Source of the DNA: Vicinamibacterales bacterium | GTDB taxonomy: Bacteria > Acidobacteriota > Vicinamibacteria > Vicinamibacterales > Vicinamibacteraceae | Direction: 5' to 3' | Length of the DNA: 64,000 nucleotides | Assembly: GCA_963844435.1 (NCBI GenBank) | Contig: CAWJOG010000001.1 | Location: 80,201 to 144,200 of the forward strand | Part shown: positions 3,297 to 53,060 of the stretch, in pieces | How positions within the stretch are numbered: the first letter of the stretch is position 1 | Layout of the letters: each line of letters opens with the position of its first letter | The notes under the pieces: generated by a model | Told to the model about the DNA's origin: nothing | Databases searched by the model: none | The model's input: only the letters and a program-made list of their open reading frames with translations | Position numbers and translations under genes: made by a program

Positions 3297-6200
3297 GTGT
3301 CAAAGACGCGTAACGCATTGAGGCTGCTGGCGAGCACCCTCGTCGTCCTGCTGGCGGCGCTGGTGGCGCCCGCGCAGGCGCAACAGTTCAACGGCACGCT
3401 GCGCGGAGTCGTTCAGGATTCCACCGGCGGCGTCCTGCCGGGTGCCGAGGTCTCGGTCATCGAGGTCAGCACGAACGATACGCGCAGCCTGACGTCCGAC
3501 GCACGGGGCAGCTGGGTGTTGCCGAACCTCAAGCCGGGCACCTACCGGATCGTCGTGTCGCTCGACGGCTTCAAGACGGCCGCGATGGACAACGTGAAGC
3601 TGGACGTCCAGGGCGTCCGCGACGTAGAAGTCTCGCTCGAGACCGGCGCCGTGGCCGAAACCGTGACCGTCAGCGGCCAGGCCGCCGCCGTGGAAGTCAC
3701 GAGCTCGACGATGAGCCAGACCATCGAGAACAAGCGGATGGTCGATCTGCCGCTGAACGGCCGCAACCCGTTCTCGCTGGCCACCCTCGCCCCCGGCGTC
3801 GCCCCGACGTCGACCGGCGGCGGCTCGTCGCCGTCGATCAGCGGCGGGCGCAACGCGACGTCCGAGGTCGCCATCGACGGCGTCTCCAACGTCAACGCCG
3901 AGAACAACGTCTCGATCCTCGACCTGAACTACACGCCGTCGGTCGACGCCGTGCAGGAGTTCAGCGTCCAGACCAACGCCGTCAGCGCCGAGTTCGGCCG
4001 CCTCGGCGGCGGCGTCATCAACCTGATCACGAAGAGCGGCAGCAACGCGCTGCGCGCCACCGCCTGGGAGTTCGCGCGCAACGCCAAGATGGACGCGACC
4101 AACTTCTTCACCAACCGCGGCGGCGGCAAGAAGGGCGACTTCAAGCGCAACCAGTTCGGCGGCAACGTCGGCGGCCCGATCAACAAGGACAAGACGTTCT
4201 TCTTCGCGAACTACGAAGGGCTCCGCCAGGAGAACGCCAACGTCCAGACCTTCACGGTGCCGCTGCCGGAGTGGCGCAACGGCGACTTCTCGAACTTCCG
4301 CAACGGCGTCGGGTCAGCTGATCACCATCTACGATCCGCTGACGACGCGCGCAGATCCGGCCAACCCGGGCCAGTTCATCCGCGATCCGTTCCCGGGCAA
4401 CGTCATCCCGCAGAGCCGCATCAGCCCGATGGCGCGCGCGATGATGTCCTACTGGCCGCTGCCGAACACGACGCCGACCAACCAGTTCACCCAGACCAGC
4501 AACTTCTCGGCCTCGGGCGTGTCGGTCAGCAACGGCGACCGCATCGACTCGCGCGTCGACCACGTCTTCAACGACCGCTGGCGCACGTTCGTCCGCTACT
4601 CGTACTCGGACGAGGAAGGCCTGCCCTTCAACAGCTTCGGCAACGCGGCGTCGTCGGCCGGCGGCGACGGTCCGACCTTCACCCGGACGCACAGCCTCTC
4701 GGTCGATCAGAACTACACGCTCGGGCCGACCTGGGTGCTGAACCTCCGCTACGGCCTCAACCGCCGCTTCGTCGATCGCCTGCCGCTGTCGGCCGGCTTC
4801 GACCTGGCCGACCTGAACTTCCCGACGCAACGTCATCGACACGGCCGACGCCTTCGAGTTCCCGCGCGTGAACGTGCAGAACTTCCAGTCGCTCGGCCAG
4901 AACACCTTCACCGACCTGGTGATTGCGCCGACGACGCACAGCTTCAACGCGAACGCGACCAAGGTGTGGGGCACGCACACGCTGAAGATGGGCGCCGACT
5001 ACCGGAAGTTCTTGCTGAACTTCACGCAGCTGTTCTTCCCGTCTGGCCAGATCAGCTTCAACAACGCGCAGTGGACACAGCGCAACCCGAACGTGACCAA
5101 CGGCACGCAGGGCGCGGCGCTGGCTTCGATGCTGCTCGGCATCCCGAGCGGCTTCAATCTGAGCCACAACCCGGACCCGGCGTCGGCCAGTTCCTATTTT
5201 GGCGGCTACCTGCAGGACGACTGGAAGGTCGCCCGCAACTTCACCATCAACCTCGGCCTGCGCTACGACTTCGACGTGCCGCGCACCGAGCGCTTCAACC
5301 GCCTCGCCTCCTTCGACACCGAAGCCACGTCCCCGCTCGCCGGCGTGGTCCCGGCCAACCCCTACTTCGATCCGTCGCAACTGAAGGGCGCGGTGGTGTT
5401 CACCGACGAGAACAACCGCCAGCAGGTCGACACCGACTACAACAACGTCAGCCCGCGTATCGGCTTCGCGTGGAACTTCGCGGAGAAGACGGTGGTGCGT
5501 GGCGGCTATGGCATCTTCTACATGCCGTCGCACGTGCAGGCGGCCGGCCACTCCGGCTCGTCGGGGATGATCGGCTACAACACGCAGAGCGACATGATCG
5601 TCAGCGTGGACAGCAACCGCACGCCGCTGCGCTACATCGACAACCCATTCCCGGACGGCTTCAACCTGCCGCCGGGCAACACGCTGGGCGCGTCGACGAA
5701 CCTCGGGCTGGGAATGGGCGGCGGCACCGGCGGCTACTTCACGACCAACCAGGTGCCGCACATGCAGCAGTGGAACCTGAACGTCCAGCGCGAGCTGCCG
5801 GGGAACATCATCACCGAGCTGGCCTACATCGGCAGCAAGGGGACCGACCTGCTGATCGGCGAGAGCGGACTCGCAGTTCGGCCAGGTCGATCCGTCGTAC
5901 CTGGGCCTCCAGAACGCGCTGCTCGATCAGGTGGACAACCCGTTCTTCGGGATCATCACCAACCCGTCGTCGCCGCTGCGGTTCCAGACCGTCTCGCGCA
6001 ACCGCCTGCTGCGGCCGTACCCGCAGTACGACGGCGTGTCGGCGTTCCGCGTGCCGGGCGCGAAGTCGATCTACCACGGCTTCACGGCGCGCGCCGACAA
6101 GCGCTTCGCGAAAGGCCTCAGCCTGCTCGCGTCCTACACGCTCGGCGAGCTGAAGGACGACGCCTCGACCACGGTCGGCTTCCTCGGCCAGGCGGGCACG

Positions 6201-20260: not shown

Positions 20261-22513
20261 AATGCGTCCGCTGACGTCGATGGTGTGCGTCGGGGTGGTG
20301 GCGATGACGGTCGTCGTGCCGCGGGCCCAGGTCCCGGAGGCGCAGCAGCCAACCGACTCGCCGACGTTCCGTGTCGGTACGCGCCTGGCGACCATCGACG
20401 CCGTCGTCGTCGATGACAGGGGTCAGCACGTCACCGACCTCAAACCCGAGGACTTCGAGATCGTCGAACGTGGAAAGTCGCAGGCGGTGCGACAGGTGGT
20501 CTACGTCCAGGTCATCGGTCCCGACGGACGGCCAGTCTTCCAGCCGACCGTGAGCCGGGGCTCCAGCGCCAGGAGCGCCCCCGGCGTCGCTTGATGCGGC
20601 GGCACGGTCCCGGCCGCTCGCCGGCGGCAACGGGCTCGCGTCCGGCAAGCGCGCCAGCCGGGTACTGGCGATCGTCGTCGACGATCTCGGCCTCTCGCAC
20701 GAGAGCACCGCCTACGTGCGGATGATGCTGACGCGCTACGTGGATACGAAGATCGCGCCCGGCGATCTCGTGGCGATCATCCGTACCGCCGGCGGGGTCG
20801 GCACGCTGCAGCAGTTCACGACCGATCGCCGGCTGCTGCACGCCGCCATCGATCGCGTCCGCTATTCGCTCCAGAGCCGCAAGGGCGTTGGCGCCTTCGA
20901 GGCCATCACGCCCCCGTCGAGCACCAGCCTGGTCACCAAAGTCGGCCAGACGATCGATGAGCTCCGGACCGAAGTGAACACGGCCGGCACGCTCGGCGCC
21001 CTCGAGTACGTGCTGCGCGGGATCGAAGAGCTGCCGGGACGCAAGAGCGTGGTGTTCGTCTCGGAGGGGTTCGACCTCGGCTTCCGTGACGCCAAGGCCA
21101 GTCGCTCGTGGTCGGCGTTCACGCGCGTGATGGACCGCGCCAACCGCGCCGGCGTCGTGGTCTACACGATGGATGCCCGCGGCCTGCAGACCGGCGGTCT
21201 CACCGCGGAGGACGACGCGCAGACCAAGAAGATCGCAATGCCGGGCGACGAGTGCGCCTGACCCAAGCCCGGTGGTCCGCGAGCGAGCCAGCGGCCGCCG
21301 GCGGGACCTGCTCGATTCGCAGGACTCGCTGGTCTACCTGGCCCAGCAGACCGGCGGCTTCGCGGTGCTCAACGGCAACGACCTGGTCGCCGGCATGGCC
21401 CGCGTGATCGACGACACGCGCGGCTACTACCTGCTCGGCTTCGACACGTCGATCCCCACGAACGAGCGGTGGGATCCGAACGACATCCGCATCCACGTCA
21501 AGCGGCCCGGGCTCACCGTGCGGGCGCGGCGCGGCCTGTTCGGGCCGGCCGAAAAGGAGCGCCCGCGCGACGCGACACCTGCCGATCCGCTGGTCGCCGC
21601 CACGCTGTCGCCCTTCGCCACCGGCGCCATCGATGTGCGCCTCACCACGCTGTTCGCGCACGACAAGACGGCCGGCTCGTACGTCCGGACGCTGTTCTTC
21701 ATCGATCCGGCCGGGCTGACGTTCGCGGTCGGCGCCGACGGCAGACATGAGGCCGACCTGTCCCTGCTGCTGCTCGCCGTCGGCGACAACGGGCAGACCT
21801 CCGCCCAGGTCCGCATCGAGGTGCCGCTCCGGCTCAATGACGACGACTACGCGCTGATGCGCCAGCGCGGTCTCCTCTACAGCGCTCGACTGGGGATCAA
21901 GGAGGCCGGCGGCTACCAGATCCGCGCCGCCGTGCAGGACGATCGCTCGAAGGCCATCGGCACGAGCGCCCAGTTCGTCGAGGTGCCGAAGGTCGGCAAG
22001 GACGTCGTCGCCCTCTCGGGCGTCCTGATGACCGACCTCACCTCGGCCATCGGCGGCGCGCCGGGTGAGCCCGCGATCGCCACGGCCATCCGGACCGACG
22101 CGCTCGCCGACGGCGTCCTCGGCGAGCCGGCGATCAAGATCTTCAAGCCCGGCAGCGAAGTCGTCTACGCCTTCGAGATCTACGATGGCCGCGGCAAGCG
22201 CAAGGACGGGTTCTCGACCCGCGCGACGCTGATCCGCGACGGCAAGGCGTTCTACACGACGCCGCCGGCACCGATCGGCGCCGCGCCGAGCGACGCCAAG
22301 CCGGTCGGCTCTGTACCCGTGGGCGGCAAGCTGTCGCTCGGCCGGGGTCTGCCGCGCGGCACCTACACGTTGCAGGTCAGCGTTGCGCCGCAGTCGGGCA
22401 AGGGCCGCGATCGGCCGGCGTCGCAGTGGGTCGACTTCGAAGCAGCTCACGGTCGCGGAGGACGGCAGCAAGGCCGTGCCCGCGATCCAGTGGGTGGACT
22501 TCGAGGTGCGCTG
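20261..22513 (+). CDS. VWA domain protein of the 'VWFA-related Acidobacterial domain' family (TIGR03436-like), paralog 1; at least 3 frameshifts
   Basis: Signal peptide, then the family N-terminal block PTFRVGTRLATIDAVVVDDRGQHVTDLKPEDFEIVERGKSQAVRQV. VWA/MIDAS region (VVFVSEGFDLG...VVVYTMDARGL). C-terminal WVDFEVR*. Fragments are in ORFs 20139-, 20716- and 21173-. Confidence 0.7.
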
Positions 22514-24584
22514 ATGCGAATCGATGCGAAGCTTGGAATCGCGGCCACTGCGCTCGCGCTGGCCGCCTGCCTGCTAGCGCCCGGCGTGACCGCGCGCCCC
22601 GGCGCCCAGGCGCCGGTGGCACAGGCGCCCGGCGGCCAGCCGACCTTCCGTGCCGGGACGCGCCTCGCCACCTTCGACGCGGTGGTCACCGATCGCAAGG
22701 GCCGTCACGTCACGGACCTGGCGCCCGCCGACTTCGAGGTGGTCGAGCGCGGCAAGCGACAGACGGTCCGCCAGGTGGCGTACGTCCACGCCGTGCGCCC
22801 GGATGGCGCGCCGACTGCGGTGGCGGGCGCTGACGCGCCGGCTGCGCCGGCGCCCGCCATGCCGGGCGCGCCGGGGCTGCCGTCGCGCGAGCAGACCGGC
22901 CGTGTGATGGCGATCGTCGTCGACGACCTGCGCATGTCGTTCCGCAGCACGGTCGACGTGCGGACCATGCTGAACCGCTACGTCGACCGGCAACTGCGGC
23001 CGGGCGATCTCGTCGCGATCATCCGGACCGCGGGCGGCGCCGGCGCGCTGCAGCAGTTCACCACCGATCGCCGGCTGCTCAAGGCGGCCATCGAGCGCGT
23101 CCGGTGGTCGGCGCGGGTCTGGCCGTTCAATCCGTCCGGCCCCTGGGAGGAGCAACGGCGAAGGGCTGGCCGATCGCTTCGAGCGCGACGTCACGCTGGA
23201 GGGCTCGCTTGGCGCCCTGGCGTACGCCGTGCGCGGCGTCCAGGTGCTGCCGGGACGCAAGACCGTGGTGTTCGTGTCGGAGGGTTTCTACCTGGCCACG
23301 CCAGACAACCGGCTGAACGACGCCCTGCCCGAAGTCGACCACGTCATCGACACCGCCAACCGGGGCGGCGTCGTCATGTACACCATCGATCCGCAGGGGC
23401 TCGTGAACCCAGTCATGGCTGAGTTCACGGCCCAGCGGTCACGGTCCGACCCGAGCTACACCGGCACGAGTATGGCACACGGTGGCGCCGGCCAGCTTCT
23501 TGGCGTCGAGGGCGCTGTTCGAGACGCAGGGGTCGCTCGAGTACCTCGCCGGGCAGACGGGCGGCTTCGCCGTCGTCAGCAACAACGACCTCACCGGCGG
23601 CCTCGCCCGCATCGGAGCGGACACGCGCGGCTATTACCTGGTCGGCTTCGACACAGCGATCCCATCGGGCGTGAGGACGGACAAGGGCGAGGTCAAGATT
23701 CGCGTGAAACGCAAGGACCTCGAGGTGCGGGCGCGCCGGGATCGCTTCGGCCCGGCCGACCCGGACGCGCCGCCCCCGACGCCACCGGCCGACCCACTGC
23801 TCTCGGCCGCGCTCTCGCCGTTCACGACCGGCGCGCTGGACGTGCGGCTCGCCGCGCTGTTCGGCCACGACACCGCGGAGGGCGACTTCGTACGCGCGTT
23901 CGTCGCCGTCGATCCGGCCGGACTCACGCTCGCCGAAGTTCCTGGAGGCGGGCGCGAAGGCAACCTGACGATGCTCGTGTTCGCCCTCGACGACGAAGGC
24001 GACGTGGTCGGCCAGGCGCGCGAGGTCATCGCCGTCCGGCTCGACGCCGACGCCTACAATCGGGCCCGGCAGCACGGCCTCCGCTACAGCGTCCGCCTCC
24101 CGTTCAAGAAGGCGGGCGGCTACCAGATCCGCGCCGCCATCCTCGACGAGCGCTCGCAGGCGATCGGCGCGAGCGCGCAGTTCGTCGAAGTGCCGCGCGT
24201 CGGCGACAAGCGGCTCGCCCTCTCCGGCGTCGTCCTGACCGAGGCGGACGCCGGCGAGAAGCCGATGACCGCGACGTTCGCCCGTGGCAGCCGGATCGAG
24301 TACAAGGGCACCCTCTACGACGGCCGGCGCCGCGACGGCGGCTTCTCGGTCAGCGCCACGGTGCTGCGCGACGGCAAGCTGGTTCACGCAAGCGCGCCTG
24401 CGCCGCTCGCCGGCGCGCCCGCGGACACGCCGGGGGTGGCGCCGATCCCGTTCCGCGGCACGCTGACGCTGGGAGACGACTTCACGCCCGGGCTCTACAC
24501 GCTGCAGGTCGACGTCGCGCCGGCGATCATCAACGGGAAGAAGAGCCGCCCGGTGCGGCAGTGGGTCGACTTCGAGGTGCGCTG
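22513..24584 (+). CDS. VWA domain protein of the 'VWFA-related Acidobacterial domain' family, paralog 2 (tandem duplicate); at least 1 frameshift
   Basis: Same architecture and near-identical motifs (QPTFRAGTRLATFDAVVTDRKGRHVTDLAPADFEVVERGKRQTVRQVAYV; ...WVDFEVR*). Its start overlaps the paralog-1 stop (TGATG at 22511-22515). Confidence 0.7.
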
Positions 24585-39166: not shown

Positions 39167-41358
39167 ATGAATCAGCAAGGGCTCAGGGGGGCCGCCGGAC
39201 ACGGCCGGACGGCGCTCGTCACGGGCGTTGCGGCGCTCGTCACGGCCACGGGGACACTCGTCGCCGGCCTGCCCGGCCAGGCGCGGTGCCGGCCACCGTC
39301 GCCGCGACCGTCGATTGGGCCGCGCACGGCGCCAACGCCGCCCACACGCAGTCCTCCCCGCTCGATCAGATCACGCCGAAGAACGTCGCCGGCCTGAAGG
39401 TGGCGTGGACGTACAACACCGGCGACGCGCGGCCGGGCCGCTCGCAGATCCAGTGCAACCCGATCGTGGTCCGCGGCGTGCTCTACGCCACGTCGCCGCA
39501 GCTCAAGGTGTTCGCGCTCGACGCCGCCACCGGCCAGCCGAAGTGGGTGTTCGATCCCTTCACCGCGGGCGCCGACCAGAGTGGCCTCGGCGTCAACCGC
39601 GGCGTTGTCTACTGGGAAGGCGAAGGCGGCCGCGACGCGCGCATCCTGGTCGGCGCCGGCTACACCCTGTTCGCGCTCGACGCGGCAACCGGCCGGCCGA
39701 TCGAGAGCTTCGGCACCAAGGGCGGCGTCGATTTGCGAGCCGGCCTCGGCGACCGGGCGAAGTCGCTTTACGTCGTCGCCAACACCCCGGGCGCGATCTA
39801 CAAGGACCTGCTGATCCAGGGCACGCGCGTCGGCGAAGGGCCCGGCCCCTCGGCGCCGGGGTACGTGCGCGCCTACAACGTCCGTACAGGCGCGATCGCC
39901 TGGACGTTCCACACCATCCCGCAGCCGGGCGAGCCGGGCCACGAGACCTGGCCGGCCGATGCCTGGAAACGCGTCGGTGGCGCCAATTCGTGGAGCGGCG
40001 TCACCGTTGACGTCGAACGCGGCCTGGTCTTCCTGCCGACCGGATCGGCGGCGTTCGACTTCTGGGGCGGCAACCGCAAGGGCGACAACCTCTACGCGAA
40101 CAGCCTGCTGGTGCTGAAGGCCGACACCGGCGCCTACGTCTGGCACTACCAGTTCGTCCGCCACGACGTCTGGGATCGCGATCTGCCGCAGGCGCCCGTG
40201 CTGGTGACCGTGCGGCGCGACGGCCGCGCGATCCCGGCAGTGGCGCAGGCGACCAAGACCGGTCACGTCTACGTGTTCGATCGCGTGACCGGCGCGCCGC
40301 TCTTCCCGATGGAGGAGCAGGCGGCGCCGCCATCCGATCTCGAGGGCGAGGTCACGGCGGCGACGCAGCCGGTGCCGAAGGCGCCGCCGCCGTTCTCGCG
40401 GCAGCTGTTCTCGGAAGACCAGATCACCGACCTGTCGCCCGAGGCGACGGCCAGCGTGCGCGAGCGCTGGCTCGCCGCGAAGCGCGGCAGCACGTGGGCG
40501 CCGCCGAGCACGCAGGGCACGATCATCTACCCCGGCTTCGACGGCGGCGCCGAGTGGGGCGGATCCGCCTACGACGAGCGCTCCGGCCTGTTCTACGTGA
40601 ACGCCAACGAGATGCCGTGGATCCTGCGGCTCGTGAAGCTGGGCAAGCCGGGCGAAGGCGGCGAGCCGGCCGGGCGCCGCACCTACCAGGCGTTCTGCGG
40701 CACCTGCCATGGCGAGAACCGGCAGGGCGATCCGCTGCGGGCCATGCCGTCGCTCGACAACGTCGAGAGCCGGCTGTCGCGGTCGGCGGTCGCGACGATC
40801 ATCGAGAACGGCCGTGGCCAGATGCCGTCGTTCACGGTCATCCCGGCCGAGGATCGCGAGGCGCTGATCGCCTACCTGTTCCGCGACGTGCAGACGCGGC
40901 GCCCGACGCGGACGCAGGACGATCCGACCGACGACATCGTCTACGCGCACACCGGCTACAACCGCTTCCTCGATCCGCAGGGCTACCCGGCCGTGAAACC
41001 GCCGTGGGGCACGCTCAACGCGATCGATCTGAACAAGGGCACGATCGCCTGGCGCGTGACGCTCGGTGAGTTCCCCGAGCTGACGAAGCAGGGCGTCAAG
41101 CCGACCGGGACTGAGAACTACGGCGGCCCGGCGGTGACGGCGGGCGGACTGGTCTTCATCGGCGCGACGAAGGACGAAAAGATCCGCGCCTTCGATGCGG
41201 CCACCGGGAAGACGCTGTGGGAGGCGCCGTTGCCCGCCGCGGCGCACGCCACGCCGGCCGTCTACGCCGTCAACGGCAAGCAGTACGTGGCGATTGCCGC
41301 CGGCGGCGGCAAGGGCACGAAGTCCGGCGACGCCTACGTGGCGTTCGCGCTGCCGTAG
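39167..41358 (+). CDS. PQQ-dependent dehydrogenase (quinoprotein beta-propeller) with embedded cytochrome c domain (quinohemoprotein-like); frameshift near 39280 in the signal peptide
   Basis: Repeated W-motif propeller blades (VYWEG..., WTFHT..., WSG...). Heme-binding CGTCHGENRQGD plus a downstream Met ligand region. 690-aa intact body. Confidence 0.8.
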
Positions 41359-42405
41359 CGTCCTGCCGCAGCCACGCGAGGCGGCGCCGGGGCGGACAGC
41401 GCGCTGGCGTCCGCAAGGCTGCCGGCGACACCGGCCGCGTCGACAAGCGCCTGCACATCCGCCGGCAGCGGCGCCGTGATCGCCAGCGGCGCGCCGGTCA
41501 CCGGATGCGCGCACGTCAGGCGCCAGGCGTGCAGCGCCTGCCGCGGGAACGTCGCGCAGACGTCGCGCAGCCGGGGATCCGCGATCCCCTTCCAGCGCGG
41601 CTCGCCGTAGATCGGATCGCCGACGATCGGCAGCCCGACGCCCGCCAGGTGCACGCGGATCTGGTGCAGCCGCCCCGTGATCAGCCGACATCGCAGAAAC
41701 GTCAGCTCGGGGCTCGGCCCCGGGCTCAGCCCAGAGCTGATCCCGCGCCACGTCGCAAGAAGTGCGATCTCGGTGGACGCCGGGAGGCCCTCGTGGCGGC
41801 TCGTCGTCATCCGCCGCGTCGCCGGATCCCGGCGGATGCGCAGATCGATGCGATCGCGCGGCGCCCGCGGCGTACCGTAGACGACCGCGAGGTAGTCCTT
41901 GTGGACGGCGCGTCGCGCCATCGCGCGCGCCAGCGTCGCGTGGACCGCCGGCGACTTCGCGACCAGCACGATCCCCGACGTCTCGCGATCGAGGCGATGG
42001 ACCAGGTGGACGCGGCCGCCGCCCCCCGGGTGTGCCAGATGCGCGAGCAGCGCGTTCATCAGCGTGCCGGACGGATGCCGGCGCGTCGGGTGCATGACCA
42101 GGCCGGCCGGCTTGTCGATGGCGAGGAGCGCGTCGTCCTCGTAGATCACCGTGAGCGGCCTGGCTTCGGCGAGGTGTTGCCGCGGCGGCGGCTCGGGCAG
42201 ATCCAGCGCGATCGCCTGCCCGGGACGGAGGCGCTGCGCCGCGCGCGTCGCCGGCACGCCGTCGACCTCGACCCGGCCCTCGCGGATCCACGCGGCGAGG
42301 CGCGTGCGCGACAGCCCGGCCCCATCGGGCAGCCGCGCCACGAGCAACCGATCCAGCCGCAGCCGGGCATCGCCGCGATCGACTTCGAGCACCCGTCGCA
42401 TGTGT
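41334..42405 (-). CDS. RluA family pseudouridine synthase (S4 RNA-binding plus catalytic domain; RluD/RluC-like)
   Basis: S4 ([34 protein letters not shown]). Catalytic HRLDRETSG motif. Its 3' end overlaps the PQQ gene end by ~24 bp. Confidence 0.8.
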
Positions 42406-42507
42406 GTGTCCGCGCCCGGCCATGGGGCCGCGAAACGCGCGGCCCGGACGCGGGTGTTCAGGATACAGTGGACATCCGCGCCGTGGGTTTGGCGCGCCGG
42501 AGGGGCC

Positions 42508-45500
42508 ATGATCACCGCCGACCCGCAACGCCGGGTCTCGACGCTTGCCCGCATCCTCGATCACGTCGGGCGCACCGCGCCTGACGCCGATCGCGACCTG
42601 CTCCTGGCCCTTGCGCCCGTCGTCTACGGCGACATGCCGGACCCCCTGGCGCTGCGGCTCTCCCCCGAGATGATTTCGGCGCGGCTGGCCGGCATCTTCC
42701 GCTTCGTCGCGCGCACGATGCCGCCGGCGGTCCAGCTGTACAAGGGCCTGCCGGGGCTGCACGTCACCGTCCGCAACCCCGACGATGCCGAAGCGCGCGC
42801 CGAAGGGTCGACGCACGAAGTGACGATCGTCGAGACCCACTCGCCCGACGCGCCGTTCGTCTTCGAGAGCCTCAAGAACTACTTCCAGAAGGAAGGCCTC
42901 CGCGTCTTCTCGTCGATCCATCCGATCTTCAGCGTCCGCCGCCAGTGGGAGCGCGTGGTCTGGATCGGCGGCCCGCAGGAGGACGGCTCGCGCGAGCTCT
43001 ACTGCCAGTTCCGCATCGAGCGCGTCGAAGCCCGCGACCGCCTGCGCCGCATCGAGCACCAGGTGTTCTCGGTCCTGAAGGCCGTGTTCCTCGGCGTCGA
43101 GGACTTCCCCGCCATGCGCCGCGGCATCGCCGAGCTGGCGCCGCGGCTGCGCGATCGCCGGGGCGGATCGAAGGAGGCCGACGCGGCGCGGTCGTTCATC
43201 GACTGGCTGATGGCCGACAACTACGTGATCCTCGGCGTCGAGCGCTACACCTTCGGGCCCGACGGCCAGCCGCACGCCGATTCCACCACCGCGCTCGGCG
43301 TGTTCAAGGATCCGACGCTGCTGCCCGTCGTCTTCCCCGGCCTGATGGAGGTGCAGCGCACCCATCTGCGTCCGGTCGCGACCGACGAGCGCGTCATCGA
43401 CGTCGACTACTGCCCCAACGCCCAGGCCATCCACCATCTCGAGCCGATCGACGACGTCGTGATCCGCGAGTGGGGCCCCGACGGCAACCTCGAGGCGTCG
43501 ACGCTGCTGCTCGGCCGCCTGGCCAAGGGCGCCCTCACCGCCAAGCCGCAGGATGTCCCGTTGATGCGGGAGAAGCTGGCCTGGCTGCTCGAGCGCTGCG
43601 GCGCCTCGAAGAACTCGCACGCCTACCGCGAGACGCGCGCGCTGTTCAACCACATGCCGCGGCGCGAGCTGCTCTACACCGACGCCACCTCGCTCAAGAC
43701 GCTCGTCGACCGCATGGTCTACATGTCGAGCGACACCGAGATCGTGGTGACGACGCGGACCGGACAGGGCTACGAGACGGTGTCGGTGGCGTTCTCGGAC
43801 CTGCACTACTCGCACCGCGTCGAGGAGGACCTGAAGCGGGCGCTGGGCGAGGCCTTCGGCCCGATCTCGTTCAACACCTGGGCCGACATGGGCGTGATCG
43901 CCCTGCTCGTCTTCTACTTCGACCAGAGCGGGCTCGAGCACCCGATCGACGTCGCCGCAGGTGCACGCCATCGTCGAGCGCGTGATCTCGACGTGGGAGG
44001 ATCGCGTCGCCGTCACCCTCGAGCAGACCTTCGGCCCGGCCGAGGGCCGTCGGCTCTACACGCGCTACATCCGCAGCGAGTCGCGCAGCGGCATGTACCG
44101 CGAATCGACTCGCCCCGAGGACGTGCCGGAGGATCTGCGCCGGCTCGAGACCATCGAGGCCCAGCTCGAGACGCACGTCCGCGTCGACACCGCCGATTCG
44201 GCGACGCTGACGATCTACTCGGCGCGCCCGCTCGGCCTGACGTCCACGCTGCGGACACTCGAGCACCTGGCGCTGCCGGTGCAGGAAGAGCTGTCGATCC
44301 CGCTGACGCTGCCCGATGGCCGCACCATCGCGCTCGAGCGCCTGAAGATCGGGGCCGCGCCGACGATCATCGCGGCGATGGTCGAAGGCGAGGACCGCCT
44401 GTGCGGGGCGCTGCGCGCGCTCCAGGAAGGCCGCGCCACCGACGATCCGCTGAACGGCCTGATCCTGAACGAGGGACTCGACTGGCGCGAGGTCGAGGTG
44501 CTGCGCACGCTGCGCAACCACCTGCTGCAGATCCGGCCGGTGCTGAACGCCGAGACCGTCAACGGCGTGCTGGTGCGCAACTGCGGCGCCGCCGCCGCTA
44601 TCTATCGCGCGTTCGCCGCCCGCTTCGATCCCGCGTTCCAGGGCAAGCGCGAAGCGACCATCGAGCACGCCGACGACGCGTTGCGGAGCGAGATGCACGC
44701 GGTCGCCAGCCTGTTCGACGACGAGATCCTGCGCGGGCTCGAGAACCTGGTGCACGCCTCGCTGCGGACCAACGCCTATCAGCGGCCGGAGCGGCCGGTG
44801 GTGGCGATCAAGGTGGCCAGCGGCAAGGTCGACGGCATGGCCTCGCCGCGGCCGCTGTTCGAGATCTACGTGCACTCGCGCAAGCTGGAGGGCATCCACC
44901 TGCGCGGCGGCATGGTCGCGCGCGGCGGCCTGCGCTGGAGCGATCGCCACGACGACTTCCGCACCGAGATCCTCGGGCTGATGAAGACGCAGCAGCTGAA
45001 GAACGCCATCATCGTCCCGGTCGGGTCGAAGGGCGGCTTCGTGCTGAAGGGCCAGCTGCCGCCGCGGCCGGCGCTGGACACGTATCTGATCGAGCGCTAC
45101 CGCGAGTTCGTGTCCGGCCTCCTCGACGTCACCGACAACCTGGTGCAGGGCGAGGTCGTGCACCCGCCCGACGTGGTCCGCCACGACGACGACGATGCCT
45201 ACCTCGTCGTCGCCGCCGACAAGGGCACGGCGCACCTCTCCGACACGGCCAACTCGGTGTCGGCGCAATACGGCTTCTGGCTGGGCGACGCGTTCGCCTC
45301 GGGCGGCAGCAACGGCTACGACCACAAGCGCGAGGGGATCACGGCGCGCGGCGCCTGGGAGTGCGTCCGCCACCACTTCCGCAACCTCGGCCTCGACGTG
45401 CAGACGCAGCCGTTCACCTGCGCCGGCATCGGCGACATGGCCGGGCGACGTCTTCGGCAACGGCACTGCTGCGCAGCAAGGCGACGCGGCTGGTCGCCGC

Positions 45501-46783
45501 GTTCAACCACCAGCACCTGTTCCTCGACCCGACGCCCGACCCGGAGAAGAGCTTCGCCGAGCGCGCGCGGCTGTTCGCGCTGCCGCGCTCGTCGTGGAAG
45601 GACTACGACCCGGCGGTGATCAGCGAGGGCGGCGGCGTCTTCGAGCGCGCCGCCAAGGAAGTGCCGCTCAGCCCGCAGGCCCGGACGCTGCTCGGCCTCG
45701 ACGACGAGGCGCCGAGCGGCGAGGAGGTGGTGCGCGCGATCCTGTCCGCGCAGGTCGACCTGCTCTACAACGGCGGCATCGGCACCTACGTCAAGGCGTC
45801 GACCGAGGAGGACGCCGACGTCGGCGATCGCTCGAACGATCGGGTCCGCGTCGACGCCACGACGGTCCGGGCCCGCGTCATCGGCGAAGGCGGCAACCTC
45901 GGCCTGACGCAGCGGGCGCGCCTCGAGTTCTGGGAGCGCGGCGGCAACCTGAACACCGACGCCATCGACAACTCCGGCGGCGTCGACATGTCGGATCACG
46001 AGGTCAACATCAAGATCCTGCTCGACGTGCTGCTGCGCGCGGGGCAGCTCGAGAGCCGCACCGCCCGCAACGATCTGCTGCGCGGCGATGACCGACAACG
46101 TGTCCGAGCTGGTGCTGGCCGACAACCAGCAGCAGGCGCTGGCGCTGACCCTGGACGGCCTGCGCAGCGCCGCGGCCTATGACAGCTACGTCGCGTTCGT
46201 CCAGGAGCTGGCCGTCGCCGGGCTGATCCACCGCGACGACGACGCCGTGCCCTCGCGCGACGAGCTGATGGCGAACCCCGCCCGCGGGCGGGGCCTGCCG
46301 CGTCCGCTGCTGTGCGTGCTGATGGGGCACGTCAAGAACTGGGCCTACGCGCGAGTCCTGAAGACCGGGCTGCCTGACGACCCGGCCAACCGTCACTTCC
46401 TGGCCAGCTACTTCCCCGCGCTGATTCAGCAGCGCTTCGACGGGCAGATCGATCGCCATCCGCTGCGCCGCGAGATCATCGCCACGGGAGCGGTCAACTA
46501 CGTGGTCAATCAGGCCGGCATCCGGCTGCTGTGGGCGCTGGCGGGGGGCACCGACGGCGACCTCGGGGCGGTGATGCAGGCCTACCTGAACGTCGACGCC
46601 GGCGCGGACGCCCGGACGGTGCGCGCCCAGCTGCAGGCGGCCGGTTCGACGCCGCCGAAGGAGCACGAGGCGCTGCTGGCTGTCGAGAGCCAGATCGAGC
46701 AGACGGTCCGCGACGTCCTGGCCGGTGGCACGCCCGACCTCAAGGCGCTGCTGCGCCGGTCGCCGCAACCGACGGGCACGTAG
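42508..46783 (+). CDS. NAD-specific glutamate dehydrogenase, large (~1400-1600 aa) bacterial type (Bac_GDH family); at least 3 frameshifts
   Basis: Family-typical N-terminal ACT-like repeats. The catalytic region ([75 protein letters not shown]) is diagnostic of Bac_GDH. Fragments are in ORFs 42151-, 43961-, 45195- and 46088-. Confidence 0.85.
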
Positions 46784-46813: not shown

Positions 46814-47266
46814 ATGCTCTATCTCTGGCTGAAGACCTTTCACGTCCTGCTGGCCATCGTCGCCGTCGGCTTCAGCATCAGCTACGGCCTGATCATCGGC
46901 CGCGCCCGCCGGGCCGGCCGCGTCGAGCTGACGTTCGCGCTGAAGACTGTCCAGGCGATGGGCGAATACGTCGCGAACCCGGCCTTCGTCCTGCTGTTCG
47001 TCACCGGCTTCGGGATGATCCGCATGAGCGGCCTCCCGATCGGCACGCGCTGGGTGCACGTGTCGATGGCGCTGCTGCTCCTGGCGATGGGCCTTGGCTT
47101 CGGCGTCGCCGGCCCGACGCTGCGCAAGCAGATCGGTATCCTCGAGGCGCGCGGCCCCGAGGACCCGGAATTCCAGTCCCTGTCGAAGCGCGGCGCCATC
47201 GTCGGCGGCATCCTCGGCCTGCTGTCCCTCACGATCATCTACCTGATGGTCCACAAACCGACCTAG
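46814..47266 (+). CDS. small integral membrane protein (4 TM; DUF2269-like, tentative)
   Basis: MLYLWLKTFHVLLAIVAVGFSISYG...FVLLFVTGFGMIRM...VHVSMALLLLAMGLGFGVAGP...IVGGILGLLSLTIIYLMV. Confidence 0.5.
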   Translation: MLYLWLKTFHVLLAIVAVGFSISYGLIIGRARRAGRVELTFALKTVQAMGEYVANPAFVLLFVTGFGMIRMSGLPIGTRWVHVSMALLLLAMGLGFGVAGPTLRKQIGILEARGPEDPEFQSLSKRGAIVGGILGLLSLTIIYLMVHKPT

Positions 47267-48160
47267 CCCCGACGACTCCGGAGTCCTGGGCGTACGACTC
47301 CGGAGTCCTGGGCGCGCGACTCCGGAGTCTGCGCACTCCGGAGTCGGACACGACTCCGGAGTGCCAGAACACCGGACTCCGGAGTGGTTGAAGGAATTGA
47401 TCGCCCCGAGCGCCCGGGCGGTGGCAGTCCTTCCTCAGTCGTATTCATCGATCATGCGGCGGCGGAGTCGACGCAGTGGCTCGCGCTTCAGCTGAGAGCG
47501 GATCCGCTGGAGCTCTGCCGTTTCGATCGCCGTATCGACGTAGTCCTTCCAGTCGGGCGGACGCGGCGCCGGCCACGTCGACAGTTGGATCGGCGAGCCG
47601 GCCGCGGCGCTGGACCACGGCCATGCACCCGGCGTCGACACCAGGCGTGCCGCGCAGGGATTGCGTTCCACATATCGAACGACGCGATAGAGGTTCGCAT
47701 CCGCTTGGACCGCAACTGCTTCGTACCGTTCCGGATACACCTGCCCCCTGGTGCCGTGCCAGCGGTGGAACCGCTTCGCGTGCGTCAGCGACAGCCAGCC
47801 GACGAAGCGCTCCACGGCTGCGTCGGTTTGAGGCCAGATCACGAAGTGCCAGTGGTTCGGCATGACGCAGTAGGCGAGCAGCCGCGTCGGCCGCACGACC
47901 TGGGTTTCGGCGATCAGATCGACGAACGCGCGATACGCGGCGCGCGAATCGAACAGGGTCACGCCGGCGGCGGAACGATTGGTGACGTGGTAGACGAAGT
48001 CGGCGAGGATGCGAACAGGTCGGCTGGGCACGCCAGTCGCTGATCAAGCCGCGTACCAGACTTCGATTCCGGAGTCGTCCCACCAGGACTCCGGAGTCGA
48101 CTTGCCAGGACTCCGGAGTCGTCACGACACGACTCCGGAGTCGTTCAATCCCATCACCGG
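47263..48160 (-). mobile_element. REPtron: REP-associated tyrosine transposase gene flanked by REP clusters
   Basis: Left cluster (47263-47400): about 6 copies of the perfect 12-bp palindrome GACTCCGGAGTC (some truncated to ACTCCGGAGT), with 8-15 nt spacers. Right cluster (48055-48160): 4 copies. The RAYT gene lies between them. Confidence 0.75.
47435..48031 (-). CDS. REP-associated tyrosine transposase (RAYT; IS200/IS605 TnpA-like Y1 HUH transposase)
   Basis: YHVTNRSAAGVTLF (N-terminal motif), HUH motif MPNHWHFVIW, catalytic-Tyr region LYRVVRYVERNP. 198 aa, intact. Confidence 0.8.
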   Translation of the reverse strand: MPSRPVRILADFVYHVTNRSAAGVTLFDSRAAYRAFVDLIAETQVVRPTRLLAYCVMPNHWHFVIWPQTDAAVERFVGWLSLTHAKRFHRWHGTRGQVYPERYEAVAVQADANLYRVVRYVERNPCAARLVSTPGAWPWSSAAAGSPIQLSTWPAPRPPDWKDYVDTAIETAELQRIRSQLKREPLRRLRRRMIDEYD

Positions 48161-48336
48161 GGCGCATGGCGTCGATGCATGCCCGGAATCAGGGGTGCCG
48201 CGACGGTCCATGCAAATTCGGCATGGAAAGAATGATAGGTTTCTATTTCCCTTCACCGGCGTTCTACCGCCTAATGAAGGTCCGCGAGGCGGGGACACGT
48301 GTCCTCCGCCGCCGCATTTCCTTTCGGGGTACCAAC

Positions 48337-53060
<4,724 letters not shown>

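Follow-up and report, generated by a model that had tools for sequence, protein, structure and literature searches.

A RAYT gene bracketed by arrays of a perfectly palindromic REP beside gltB in a Vicinamibacterales genome: a probable REPtron

This locus raises the question of whether a gene for a small nuclease and the short palindromes on either side of it form one element and, if so, of what kind. The gene lies in a window (the whole stretch of DNA analysed) of 64 kb from a Vicinamibacterales bacterium. An earlier note on this DNA had proposed a REPtron, that is, a REP-associated tyrosine transposase (RAYT) bracketed by REPs, inserted between the NAD-GDH and gltBD genes. The region is as described, but the gene immediately to the left is not GDH; it encodes a 150-aa DUF2269 membrane protein (46814-47266, plus strand) and lies downstream of NAD-GDH. 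The features of the locus are as follows.

47271-47388, no strand assigned: left REP array, six palindromic ACTCCGGAGT cores (repeat scans, ssDNA folding).
47389-47434, minus strand: spacer from the RAYT stop codon to the innermost left REP (GTTGAAGGAATTGATCGCC...) (sequence comparison).
47435-48031, minus strand: RAYT gene (TnpAREP-like HUH/Y1 nuclease), 198 aa, GTG start (Pfam, NCBIfam, PDB profile, fold, dN/dS).
48032-48064, minus strand: region upstream of RAYT, from the start codon to the innermost right REP (...GCTGATCAAGCCGCGTACCAGACTTC) (conservation).
48065-48145, no strand assigned: right REP array, four copies with a strict 22-nt period (repeat scans, folding).

The 198-aa minus-strand ORF had been singled out for an HWH motif and a catalytic tyrosine, and both are present. 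The HUH motif is H60-W-H62 and the catalytic tyrosine is Y120 within RYVERNP (Y---NP); H60/H62 and the Y120 motif are invariant across a 21-sequence alignment. Residues 137-141 form a WPWSS motif. There is a Pfam match to Y1_Tnp (PF01797, E 4e-9), and the sole NCBIfam match is to REP_Tyr_transpos (NF047646), at 62.6 bits and under the cut-off of 80. A phmmer search of the PDB with the single sequence matched no transposase and a profile was required, for which the best match is E. coli TnpAREP (4ER8, E 5e-8). The AF2 model has a pLDDT of 85 and Foldseek also places 4ER8 on top (E 1.5e-6, TM 0.52/0.61, identity about 18%). By both profile and predicted fold, 4ER8 outranks the IS200, IS608 and ISDra2 TnpA structures. 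These results support the identification of the ORF as a predicted RAYT-type Y1 nuclease, as had been proposed. With dN/dS values of 0.09-0.44, the gene is under purifying selection. There is no Pfam domain in the C-terminal tail, and an exact-sequence look-up of the protein matched no record.

In the published classification, Y---NP is the signature of class 2 and Y---Q that of class 1 (IS200) (PMC6006769, Table 1). The run Y120-V-E-R-N124-P125 has the Y---NP form, and YVERNA replaces YVERNP in a lineage of 40-46% identical RAYTs. The motif set NHWH / YP-YQ / YVERNP is an exact match to no subclass consensus, and the middle residue of the HUH motif (W, M or A) is outside those given for class 2 (PMC6006769).

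There are six exact copies of GACTCCGGAGTC in the window (at 47274, 47296, 47318, 48087, 48109 and 48131; shuffles expect 0.01) and nine copies of the 10-nt core ACTCCGGAGT (0.13 expected); the full REP consensus is ACGACTCCGGAGTCGT. When one mismatch is allowed there are 10 copies, six on the left (47274-47386) and four on the right (48065-48142), in agreement with the numbers first estimated, and none at up to one mismatch in the remainder of the 64 kb. The 12-mers are at 47274-85, 47296-307, 47318-29, 47334-45, 47352-63 and 47375-86 in the left array and at 48065-76 (GATTCCGGAGTC), 48087-98, 48109-20 and 48131-42 in the right. The spacers had been described as irregular and 8-15 nt long, but in the left array they measure 10, 10, 4, 6 and 11 nt and in the right array all three are 10 nt. 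Tandem Repeats Finder places arrays of period 22 at 47272-47329 and 48068-48144. The left array begins 8 nt beyond the DUF2269 stop codon (TAG, 47264-47266), with GACG directly before the outermost ACTCCGGAGT. At the outer boundary of the right array ACTCCGGAGT is followed by CGTT, and the conserved gltB upstream region adjoins it from about 48150. The region between the right array and the RAYT start codon (48032-48064) is conserved among orthologous loci and is presumed to be the RAYT promoter or leader.

Folded as single-stranded DNA, the left array reaches -48.7 kcal/mol (z = -7.3) and the right array forms two 14-bp hairpins (-30.3 kcal/mol, z = -6.5). A single REP copy folds weakly (-4.2 kcal/mol), and neighbours 18-24 nt apart pair to give hairpins of 12-16 bp; these REPIN-like doublets fold to -14 to -21 kcal/mol (z -5.6 to -8.6). 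Overall, the two arrays are mutually inverted (I1; 59-nt arms, 83% complementary). It had been suggested that the hairpins might terminate transcripts, but no T-runs follow them and a terminator scan found nothing at the arrays. Rfam gave only sub-threshold look-alikes of miRNA hairpins (22-28 bits against gathering thresholds of 93-95).

The order GDH/DUF2269 - RAYT - gltB is found in about 19 related loci (L001, L002, L003/L004, L105, L076, L111-L121 and L123). REP arrays flank RAYT in these loci, with L076 having no array on one side, and in L123 RAYT is inverted relative to DUF2269. The flanking motif is of the ACTCCGGAGT type in about 15 loci; where the RAYTs are 56-94% identical the core motif is identical and is repeated 2-8 times on a side with a period of 21, 22 or 24. 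A crude neighbour-joining tree groups the syntenic RAYTs in one clade. A recent insertion, as the earlier wording implied, is not what is seen; RAYT occupies the same intergenic position, in the GDH-gltB region, in lineages with RAYT identities as low as about 40%. On these comparisons the REPtron is vertically kept at a conserved position. The arrays themselves gain and lose whole units rapidly: between the window and L001, which share 97.4% identity over 20.6 kb, the arrays differ by whole units, and comparison of the left array with same-species relatives likewise gives whole-unit indels. Close relatives hold no further REP copy in the flanks of about 20 kb around their REPtrons, and the window and the REP-bearing loci gave no usable overlap beyond the REPtron locus for comparing orthologous intergenic regions with and without REPs.

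The two clusters could have been local duplications rather than members of a dispersed family, and this was checked in related genomes. A scan for doublets found at least 22, at least 12 and at least 19 loci in three Vicinamibacterales genomes and single, chance-level matches elsewhere. We sampled 60 clusters with 145 cores from these three genomes. The motif is present as hairpin-forming doublets or triplets with dominant doublet spacings of 22, 24 and 18 nt; the consensus of the outer flank before the core is A72/C93/G88 (60 clusters), and the doublets have symmetric outer flanks (ACG-core...core-CGT). As in a REPIN, the unit is an inverted pair of REPs that are closely spaced, fold into a long hairpin and recur throughout the genome. 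Most of the 60 clusters fall outside the ORFs defined by GC3, and 38 genes have their 3' end 2-29 nt from a sampled cluster. Genome SOY_63 combines a RAYT (L076) with at least 18 dispersed loci; the period of 24 seen beside its RAYT also predominates among the dispersed copies. In CAWFJQ and CAVRKP, which have the most dispersed copies, RAYT was not seen among the matches listed. Comparison of these relatives shows that the motif is dispersed in predicted extragenic space, the source sequence itself covering 64 kb only and holding no copy beyond the two arrays.

A GT[AG]G foot was not seen in the outer flanks of the sampled clusters, where A/C/G stands directly before ACTCCGGAGT and there is no GTAG or GTGG. 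A preference for TAG stops, which might act as a remote GTAG-like foot, was also tested and there was no bias (17 TAG, 17 TGA and 4 TAA beside clusters; background 93, 118 and 13). The REP is therefore atypical in having no GT[AG]G foot and in being a perfect palindrome of 12-16 nt. The recognised atypical subclasses 2.6 and 3 are likewise without this foot (PMC6006769).

Taken together, the data make it very probable that the locus is a REPtron of the REPIN-RAYT kind, in which a fixed, vertically inherited RAYT lies between two arrays of the cognate REP. The enzyme family, the six and four REPs and the fixed synteny all bear out this reading, which was also that of the earlier note. Weighing against it are the sub-cut-off NCBIfam score, the missing GT[AG]G foot, the HUH middle residue, the absence of further REPs from the window and from the flanks in close relatives, and the terminal inverted repeats of the nearest non-syntenic relatives examined. 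REPtrons, single-copy vertically inherited RAYTs and cleavage and ligation by TnpAREP have been described previously (PMC6006769, PMC5581495, PMC3733652, PMC3479197), and E. coli TnpAREP is the only enzyme for which sequence-specific cleavage and rejoining of REPs in single-stranded DNA has been shown (PMC3479197; cited in PMC6006769). By analogy with that enzyme and with the REPIN-RAYT systems of Pseudomonas, the RAYT would bind the hairpins of REP doublets on single-stranded DNA and Y120 would cleave, with a metal held by H60/H62, before rejoining; binding, cleavage and transposition are all modelled on these systems. The doublets would be copied or moved in trans to other extragenic sites, mainly just past stop codons, while the RAYT gene itself would stay in place. 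We infer that the RAYT disperses the REPs, and the REPs may in turn affect host transcripts.

The syntenic RAYTs that are 40-46% identical have other short GC-rich repeats, of period 11-13, at three loci; a fourth locus was too short to judge. The RAYT of L112 is flanked by AGCCCCGGGGCT (period 13), that of L121 by GCCCGGGGCTGA (period 12) and that of L114 by TGCTCGGGGCA/GCCCCGAGCAC (period 11, inverted). AGCCCCGGGGCT occurs neither in the window nor in any other of the loci fetched, among them the carriers of the ACTCCGGAGT REP. Across these loci the repeat motif changes along with the RAYT lineage at the syntenic site. We suggest, tentatively, that the GDH-gltB REPtron may be ancient and fixed, with a single vertical RAYT lineage, at least three changes of cognate repeat (ACTCCGGAGT, AGCCCCGGGGCT/GCCCGGGGCTGA and TGCTCGGGGCA) and constant flanks, its clade lying beside TIRYT-like relatives. 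If this is true, the locus records a transition from TIR to REP and a natural series of specificity switches, and the code of RAYT-REP recognition could be read for foot-less, perfectly palindromic REPs.

It is improbable that the locus is instead a domesticated Y1 nuclease whose arrays have a local host role at a nitrogen-assimilation locus, REP mobilisation being extinct or incidental. The arrays might, for example, act as DNA or RNA structures that insulate or stabilise the transcripts, convergent for DUF2269/GDH and divergent for gltB. Such a role would fit with RAYT and arrays being kept at one intergenic site down to about 40% identity, even with a changed motif, and with the placing of the arrays, the right one abutting a very strongly conserved gltB upstream region of about 190 nt and the left one starting 8 nt past a stop codon. 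However, the motif is dispersed at dozens of unrelated extragenic sites in related genomes and there are no terminator-like T-runs. Nor does a precise structural requirement seem likely when the copy number and spacers of the arrays vary even between 97% identical genomes and one side of L076 is without an array.

There is very little likelihood that the element is an ordinary autonomous insertion sequence of the IS200/IS605 family with ends that are repetitive by chance. The Pfam Y1_Tnp match, the mutual inversion of the arrays (59-nt arms, 83% complementary) and the inverted RAYT of L123 are compatible with an insertion sequence, but the signature is Y---NP and not Y---Q (PMC6006769, Table 1), and RAYT is neighboured by DUF2269 and gltB with no adjoining tnpB. 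RAYTs of 40-94% identity occupy one syntenic site in about 19 loci, a pattern other than that of near-identical copies spread over many sites. On the flanks there are arrays of 2-8 repeats in place of the distinct hairpins that mark the left and right ends of an insertion sequence, and TnpAREP ranks above all the IS TnpA structures. In these respects the ORF is unlike an ordinary IS200 TnpA with IS ends.

We consider it just as unlikely that the palindromes are operators of a dsDNA-binding regulator (for example, a TetR-family dimer) and are near a Y1 gene by coincidence. Perfect dyad symmetry is typical of operators and the mycobacterial DarR operator TAGATACTCCGGAGTATCTA includes the identical 10-mer (PMC10636190); a literature search for the motif returned only this unrelated operator and primers. 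Against this, a single gene has 4-8 phased copies on each side, the dispersed copies are mostly 2-29 nt past stops and between convergent genes rather than at promoters, the motif changes along with the RAYT lineage at the syntenic locus and there is no associated regulator gene. A CRISPR-like reading was rejected on the 12-nt repeats, the spacers of about 10 nt and the lack of cas genes.

Read as a REPtron, the locus can be compared with known systems. E. coli TnpAREP (YafM; 4ER8; PMC3479197) is likewise a monomer-type HUH/Y1 nuclease and is the best structural and profile match. Its REPtron (Ton-Hoang et al. 2012, as cited in PMC6006769) is also a single gene with several flanking REPs that are dispersed extragenically, E. 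coli BIMEs have regularly spaced REPs in arrays, and TnpAREP shares Y---NP. The E. coli REP, however, is a bulged, imperfect palindrome of about 35 nt whose 5' guide tetranucleotide is GTAG, whereas that of the window is perfect, 12-16 nt long and without a GT[AG]G foot. In addition, the clade of the window RAYT has HWH, HMH or HAH and Y for W in the WQ motif, and the window protein, only about 18% identical, carries about 55 aa more as a C-terminal tail. The REPIN-RAYT system of P. fluorescens (Bertels & Rainey; PMC3116915, PMC5581495) is similar in its unit (a REP doublet forming a long hairpin), in its conserved, vertically inherited RAYT locus under purifying selection, in the genome-wide overrepresentation of the RAYT-flanking sequence and in having its own REP for each RAYT lineage. 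It differs in that the host phylum here is Acidobacteriota (Vicinamibacterales), abundance is apparently far lower (at least tens as against hundreds per genome), the arrays are strictly phased at 21-24 nt and the window-type core is self-complementary, so orientation is set by the flanks only.

The nearest non-syntenic relatives examined (about 43% identical; L107 and L108; Planctomycetota and others) have terminal inverted repeats of 26-28 nt and no REPs. They are TIR-flanked in the manner of the TIRYTs (TnpAY1 subclass 2.1, Bertels group 1; PMC3733652, PMC6006769). Shared features are an aromatic middle residue in HUH, an aromatic substituted for W and, in the tail, an SS motif. Members of subclass 2.1 are reported to be without REPs and to have a C-terminal HTH, whereas the window has REPs in phased arrays in place of single TIRs and the short tail of its protein contains no Pfam domain. 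Class 3 and subclass 2.6 (for example, in Solibacter usitatus; PMC6006769) are alike in their hosts (Acidobacteria and Planctomycetes) and in having atypical flanking secondary structures without GT[AG]G in many genomic copies, but class 3 has YV..EQ (Y----Q) and NHVH where the window protein has the class 2 signature YVERNP. The window REP motif is absent from Table S1 of Quentin 2018 (PMC6006769). RAYT/REP systems had been thought less documented in Acidobacteria; this stands only in part, as they have already been reported in Terriglobus (subclass 2.2) and Solibacter (class 3) (PMC6006769, Table S1).

The locus is best regarded as one more domesticated mobile element of a known kind, new, real and fairly ordinary, and it bears out current understanding without altering it. 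Long-lived, vertically inherited mobile DNA is rare, and REPIN-RAYT systems are an example of it for which almost all the detailed work has been in Proteobacteria; this locus would extend them to Vicinamibacterales, a soil order rich in uncultured members, with a minimal, perfectly palindromic REP without a GTAG guide. Because RAYT is at one fixed, recognisable site, orthologous loci with different RAYT/repeat pairs can be collected from metagenomes, and such collections could be used to study the co-evolution of nuclease and hairpin specificity. The arrays are also assembly-fragile repeats beside two key nitrogen-assimilation genes and should not be taken for regulatory sites or CRISPR-like arrays.

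Finally, the stretch that separates the RAYT stop codon from the innermost left REP (47389-47434) is kept in L001 and L002, and its start appears to resemble the GGTTGAGGAACC spacer of the dispersed doublets in genome CAWFJQ.

As the earlier note had claimed, the locus is a REPtron (REPIN-RAYT system), a REP-associated tyrosine transposase (RAYT) gene with flanking REP arrays. The RAYT has TnpAREP as its best match, and the repeats co-vary with the RAYT and are dispersed in related genomes. The features are arranged as follows.

46814-47266, plus strand: DUF2269 gene, 150 aa, the left neighbour, downstream of NAD-GDH
47274, 47296, 47318, 47334, 47352 and 47375: REP 12-mers of the left array, at most one mismatch
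47435-48031, minus strand: RAYT ORF, GTG start, 198 aa
48065, 48087, 48109 and 48131: REP 12-mers of the right array, at most one mismatch

There are six exact copies of GACTCCGGAGTC in the 64-kb window, every one beside the RAYT ORF, where dinucleotide shuffles predict 0.01, and nine copies of the 10-nt core ACTCCGGAGT (0.13 expected). With up to one mismatch allowed there are 10 copies, six to the left and four to the right, and none beyond the RAYT flanks in the whole 64-kb window. The 198-aa minus-strand ORF and the approximate copy numbers proposed earlier are confirmed. The spacers, previously put at 8-15 nt, measure 10, 10, 4, 6 and 11 nt in the left array, and all three in the right array are 10 nt; Tandem Repeats Finder gives the arrays a period of 22. 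The element had been placed between NAD-GDH and gltBD. The right-hand neighbour is indeed gltB, with an ATG at 48338 that matches the gltB start of relatives by alignment (the listed ORF 48166-49308 begins upstream of it purely through the ORF delimitation rule), but the gene directly to the left is the DUF2269 gene, not NAD-GDH, and its TAG stop lies 8 nt from the first left REP.

One genome per GTDB species (596 Gb) was scanned for ACTCCGGAGT-N4-30-ACTCCGGAGT, which gave at least 99 stretches. At least 22 are in the Vicinamibacterales MAG MFD04651.bin.2.36, at least 12 in MFD01275.bin.2.21 and at least 19 in Vicinamibacteraceae SOY_63; among the matches listed, the rest are nearly all singletons in unrelated taxa, at about chance level for 596 Gb. 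The three genomes, together with one further Vicinamibacteraceae locus (L073), hold at least 60 clusters with 145 cores, mainly doublets and triplets with preferred spacings of 22, 24 and 18 nt. The outward flanks of these cores are symmetric (A 72%, C 93% and G 88% before the core), so the full consensus is a 16-nt palindrome, ACGACTCCGGAGTCGT. Most clusters lie outside coding ORFs, as judged by a GC3-based coding predictor, and 38 gene 3' ends are 2-29 nt from a cluster, often between convergent genes; no stop-codon preference was detected beside the clusters. The left array of the window, 8 nt past a stop, is placed in the same way. SOY_63 has the RAYT (at L076) with a period-24 doublet alongside, and period 24 is also dominant among its dispersed loci, of which there are at least 18; this links the flanking and dispersed populations in one genome. 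Extra clusters in the fetched 8-kb pieces suggest a density of roughly one per 60-140 kb, so it is uninformative that the window has no others. A purely local, host-regulatory role for the arrays and RAYT, to which their position beside gltB might point, is unlikely given this dispersal.

A composite of two doublets 54 nt apart, or more generally of a doublet or array, a spacer of constant length and variable sequence (core-to-core 53-55 nt) and a second doublet or array, recurs in two Vicinamibacterales genomes (L024, L051, L066, L071, L096 and L100 of CAWFJQ; L077 of CAVRKP). Such composites might have arisen from a REPtron by deletion of the RAYT, or might be larger MITE-like units.

If nuclease and repeat are a cognate pair, RAYT and repeat are expected to co-vary, and they do. 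All loci with a RAYT 56-94% identical to that of the window share the ACTCCGGAGT core, strictly phased with a period of 21, 22 or 24 and 2-8 copies per side (at L076, L113 and L123 only one flank was available or occupied). Three syntenic loci with a RAYT 40-46% identical carry other repeats on both flanks: AGCCCCGGGGCT with period 13 (L112), GCCCGGGGCTGA with period 12 (L121), and, with period 11, TGCTCGGGGCA on one side facing the complementary GCCCCGAGCAC across the gene (L114). AGCCCCGGGGCT was not found in the window or any other fetched locus, and no clear array was seen at L122, a fourth locus of this 40-46% group, on a 1-kb contig with only the first 44 RAYT residues. The two more distant relatives looked at (L107 and L108, ~43% identical) have one terminal inverted repeat of 26-28 nt on each flank, which resembles the arrangement of TIRYTs (Di Nocera et al., PMC3733652). 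At L108 the element lies between two direct copies, 60 nt long and 92% identical, of the end (3') of its upstream gene (3700-3759 and 4967-5026), and at L107 a 66-nt tandem duplication (3869-4012) takes in one inverted repeat.

The RAYT matches Pfam Y1_Tnp (E 4e-9), and its single NCBIfam match is REP_Tyr_transpos (62.6 bits, below the 80-bit cut-off). The HWH and catalytic-Tyr motifs noted earlier are borne out by an alignment of 21 homologues, in which H60, H62 and R119-Y120-V-E-R-N124 are invariant and P125 nearly so; the middle HUH residue is W, M or A among orthologues. This gives the Y---NP signature of class 2 (TnpAREP) and not the Y---Q of IS200 (Quentin et al., PMC6006769, Table 1). 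An IS200-type insertion sequence is therefore unlikely, although such transposases are among the weaker matches: in the profile search E. coli TnpAREP (4ER8) is top (E 5e-8), with ISDra2 and IS200 TnpA at 3e-4 and weaker, and Foldseek with the AlphaFold model (pLDDT 85, pTM 0.83) likewise ranks first the structure 4ER8 (E 1.5e-6; 'REP associated tyrosine transposase bound to a REP hairpin'), followed by IS200, ISDra2 and IS608 transposases.

RAYT/REP systems are well described, as are their single-copy vertical inheritance and the specificity of REPs to RAYT lineages (PMC2817692, PMC3116915, PMC5581495, PMC6006769). The earlier note called them less documented in Acidobacteria-like genomes, but Terriglobus (subclass 2.2, Table S1) and Solibacter (class 3) were already reported (PMC6006769). 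What is new is the host order Vicinamibacterales; this REP, which is a perfect 12-16-nt palindrome, strictly phased in its arrays and without a GT[AG]G foot; a RAYT clade with a set of motifs (NHWH / YP-YQ / YVERNP) that exactly matches no published subclass consensus; and the collection of orthologous loci with switched repeats.

As single-stranded DNA a lone REP 16-mer folds weakly (-4.2 kcal/mol), whereas neighbouring REPs pair into 12-16-bp hairpins (-14 to -21 kcal/mol, z -5.6 to -8.6), and the right array forms two 14-bp hairpins. The predicted folds suggest that the functional unit is most likely the REP doublet (REPIN). A TetR-like operator is an unlikely reading of palindromes so arranged, even though the same 10-mer is present in the DarR operator. 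By homology with TnpAREP, the RAYT would bind single-stranded DNA at REP hairpins, cut it with Y120 and an HUH-bound metal and rejoin the ends; doublets would spread in trans through this RAYT while its gene stays in place. Whole-unit indels separate the arrays of the window from those of 95-97% identical relatives, and alternating spacers with a 48-nt super-period at two loci (L111 and L120) point to tandem duplication of doublets. A terminating role had also been suggested for the REPs; the arrays show no intrinsic-terminator features, and an Rfam search of them gave no family match.

The RAYT locus is fixed and old. Orthologues lie with gltB on one side and GDH, in some cases plus DUF2269, on the other at L001 and L002 (94% identical), L105 (71%), L076 (68%) and L003/L004 (67%). 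Scanning metagenome contigs with a conserved segment from upstream of gltB added 12 loci, and tblastn found RAYT-like sequence beside that segment in all 12 (for L113 and L122, which are short contigs, an N-terminal fragment only). A crude NJ tree unites the syntenic RAYTs in one clade, sister to non-syntenic relatives from Planctomycetota and other phyla. Over 20.6 kb the window shares 97.4% identity with L001, suggesting the same species. RAYT dN/dS is 0.09-0.44, indicating purifying selection. Its synonymous divergence from the window (0.64 for L105, 1.21 for L076) is 2-5 times that of the flanking gltB, GDH and DUF2269 in the same genome pairs (0.17-0.33), which could reflect faster local mutation, a weaker codon bias or recombination that replaced the allele.

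At L123 the RAYT (56% identical) adjoins DUF2269 in reversed orientation; the two genes are co-directional there (1780-2672) and convergent in the window and the other loci having both. This fits inversion by recombination between the mutually inverted flanking arrays.

The ~190-nt noncoding stretch from the right array to the gltB start (48150-48337) is more conserved than the RAYT, being near-identical even at loci where RAYT identity drops to 40-46%. A perfect palindrome in it, GGACACGTGTCC (48293-48304), lies ~35 nt upstream of the gltB ATG, and the stretch has a plausible RNAalifold fold with almost no covariation (both-side changes in 2/42 pairs). The stretch is likely to be a gltB promoter/operator or leader.

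NAD-GDH is in two frames (42151-46182 and 46088-46783) and gltB is broken inside its GATase_2 domain (48166-49308 and 49050-53060). Both gene calls are also fragmented at L001 and L003, which are related contigs from long reads; at L105 gltB is called as a single gene of 1608 aa that extends past the locus end. The splits are probably assembly indel errors, not pseudogenes. A 1614-aa ORF overlapping the GDH gene (39172-44016, minus strand) had no match in a Pfam search and is almost certainly spurious, since antisense ORFs like it are common in 70% G+C DNA. Finally, 20315-22035 and 22593-24242 are tandem paralogous coding segments with ~68% nucleotide identity (71-83% in blocks), and one fetched locus, L023, contains sequence related to them.
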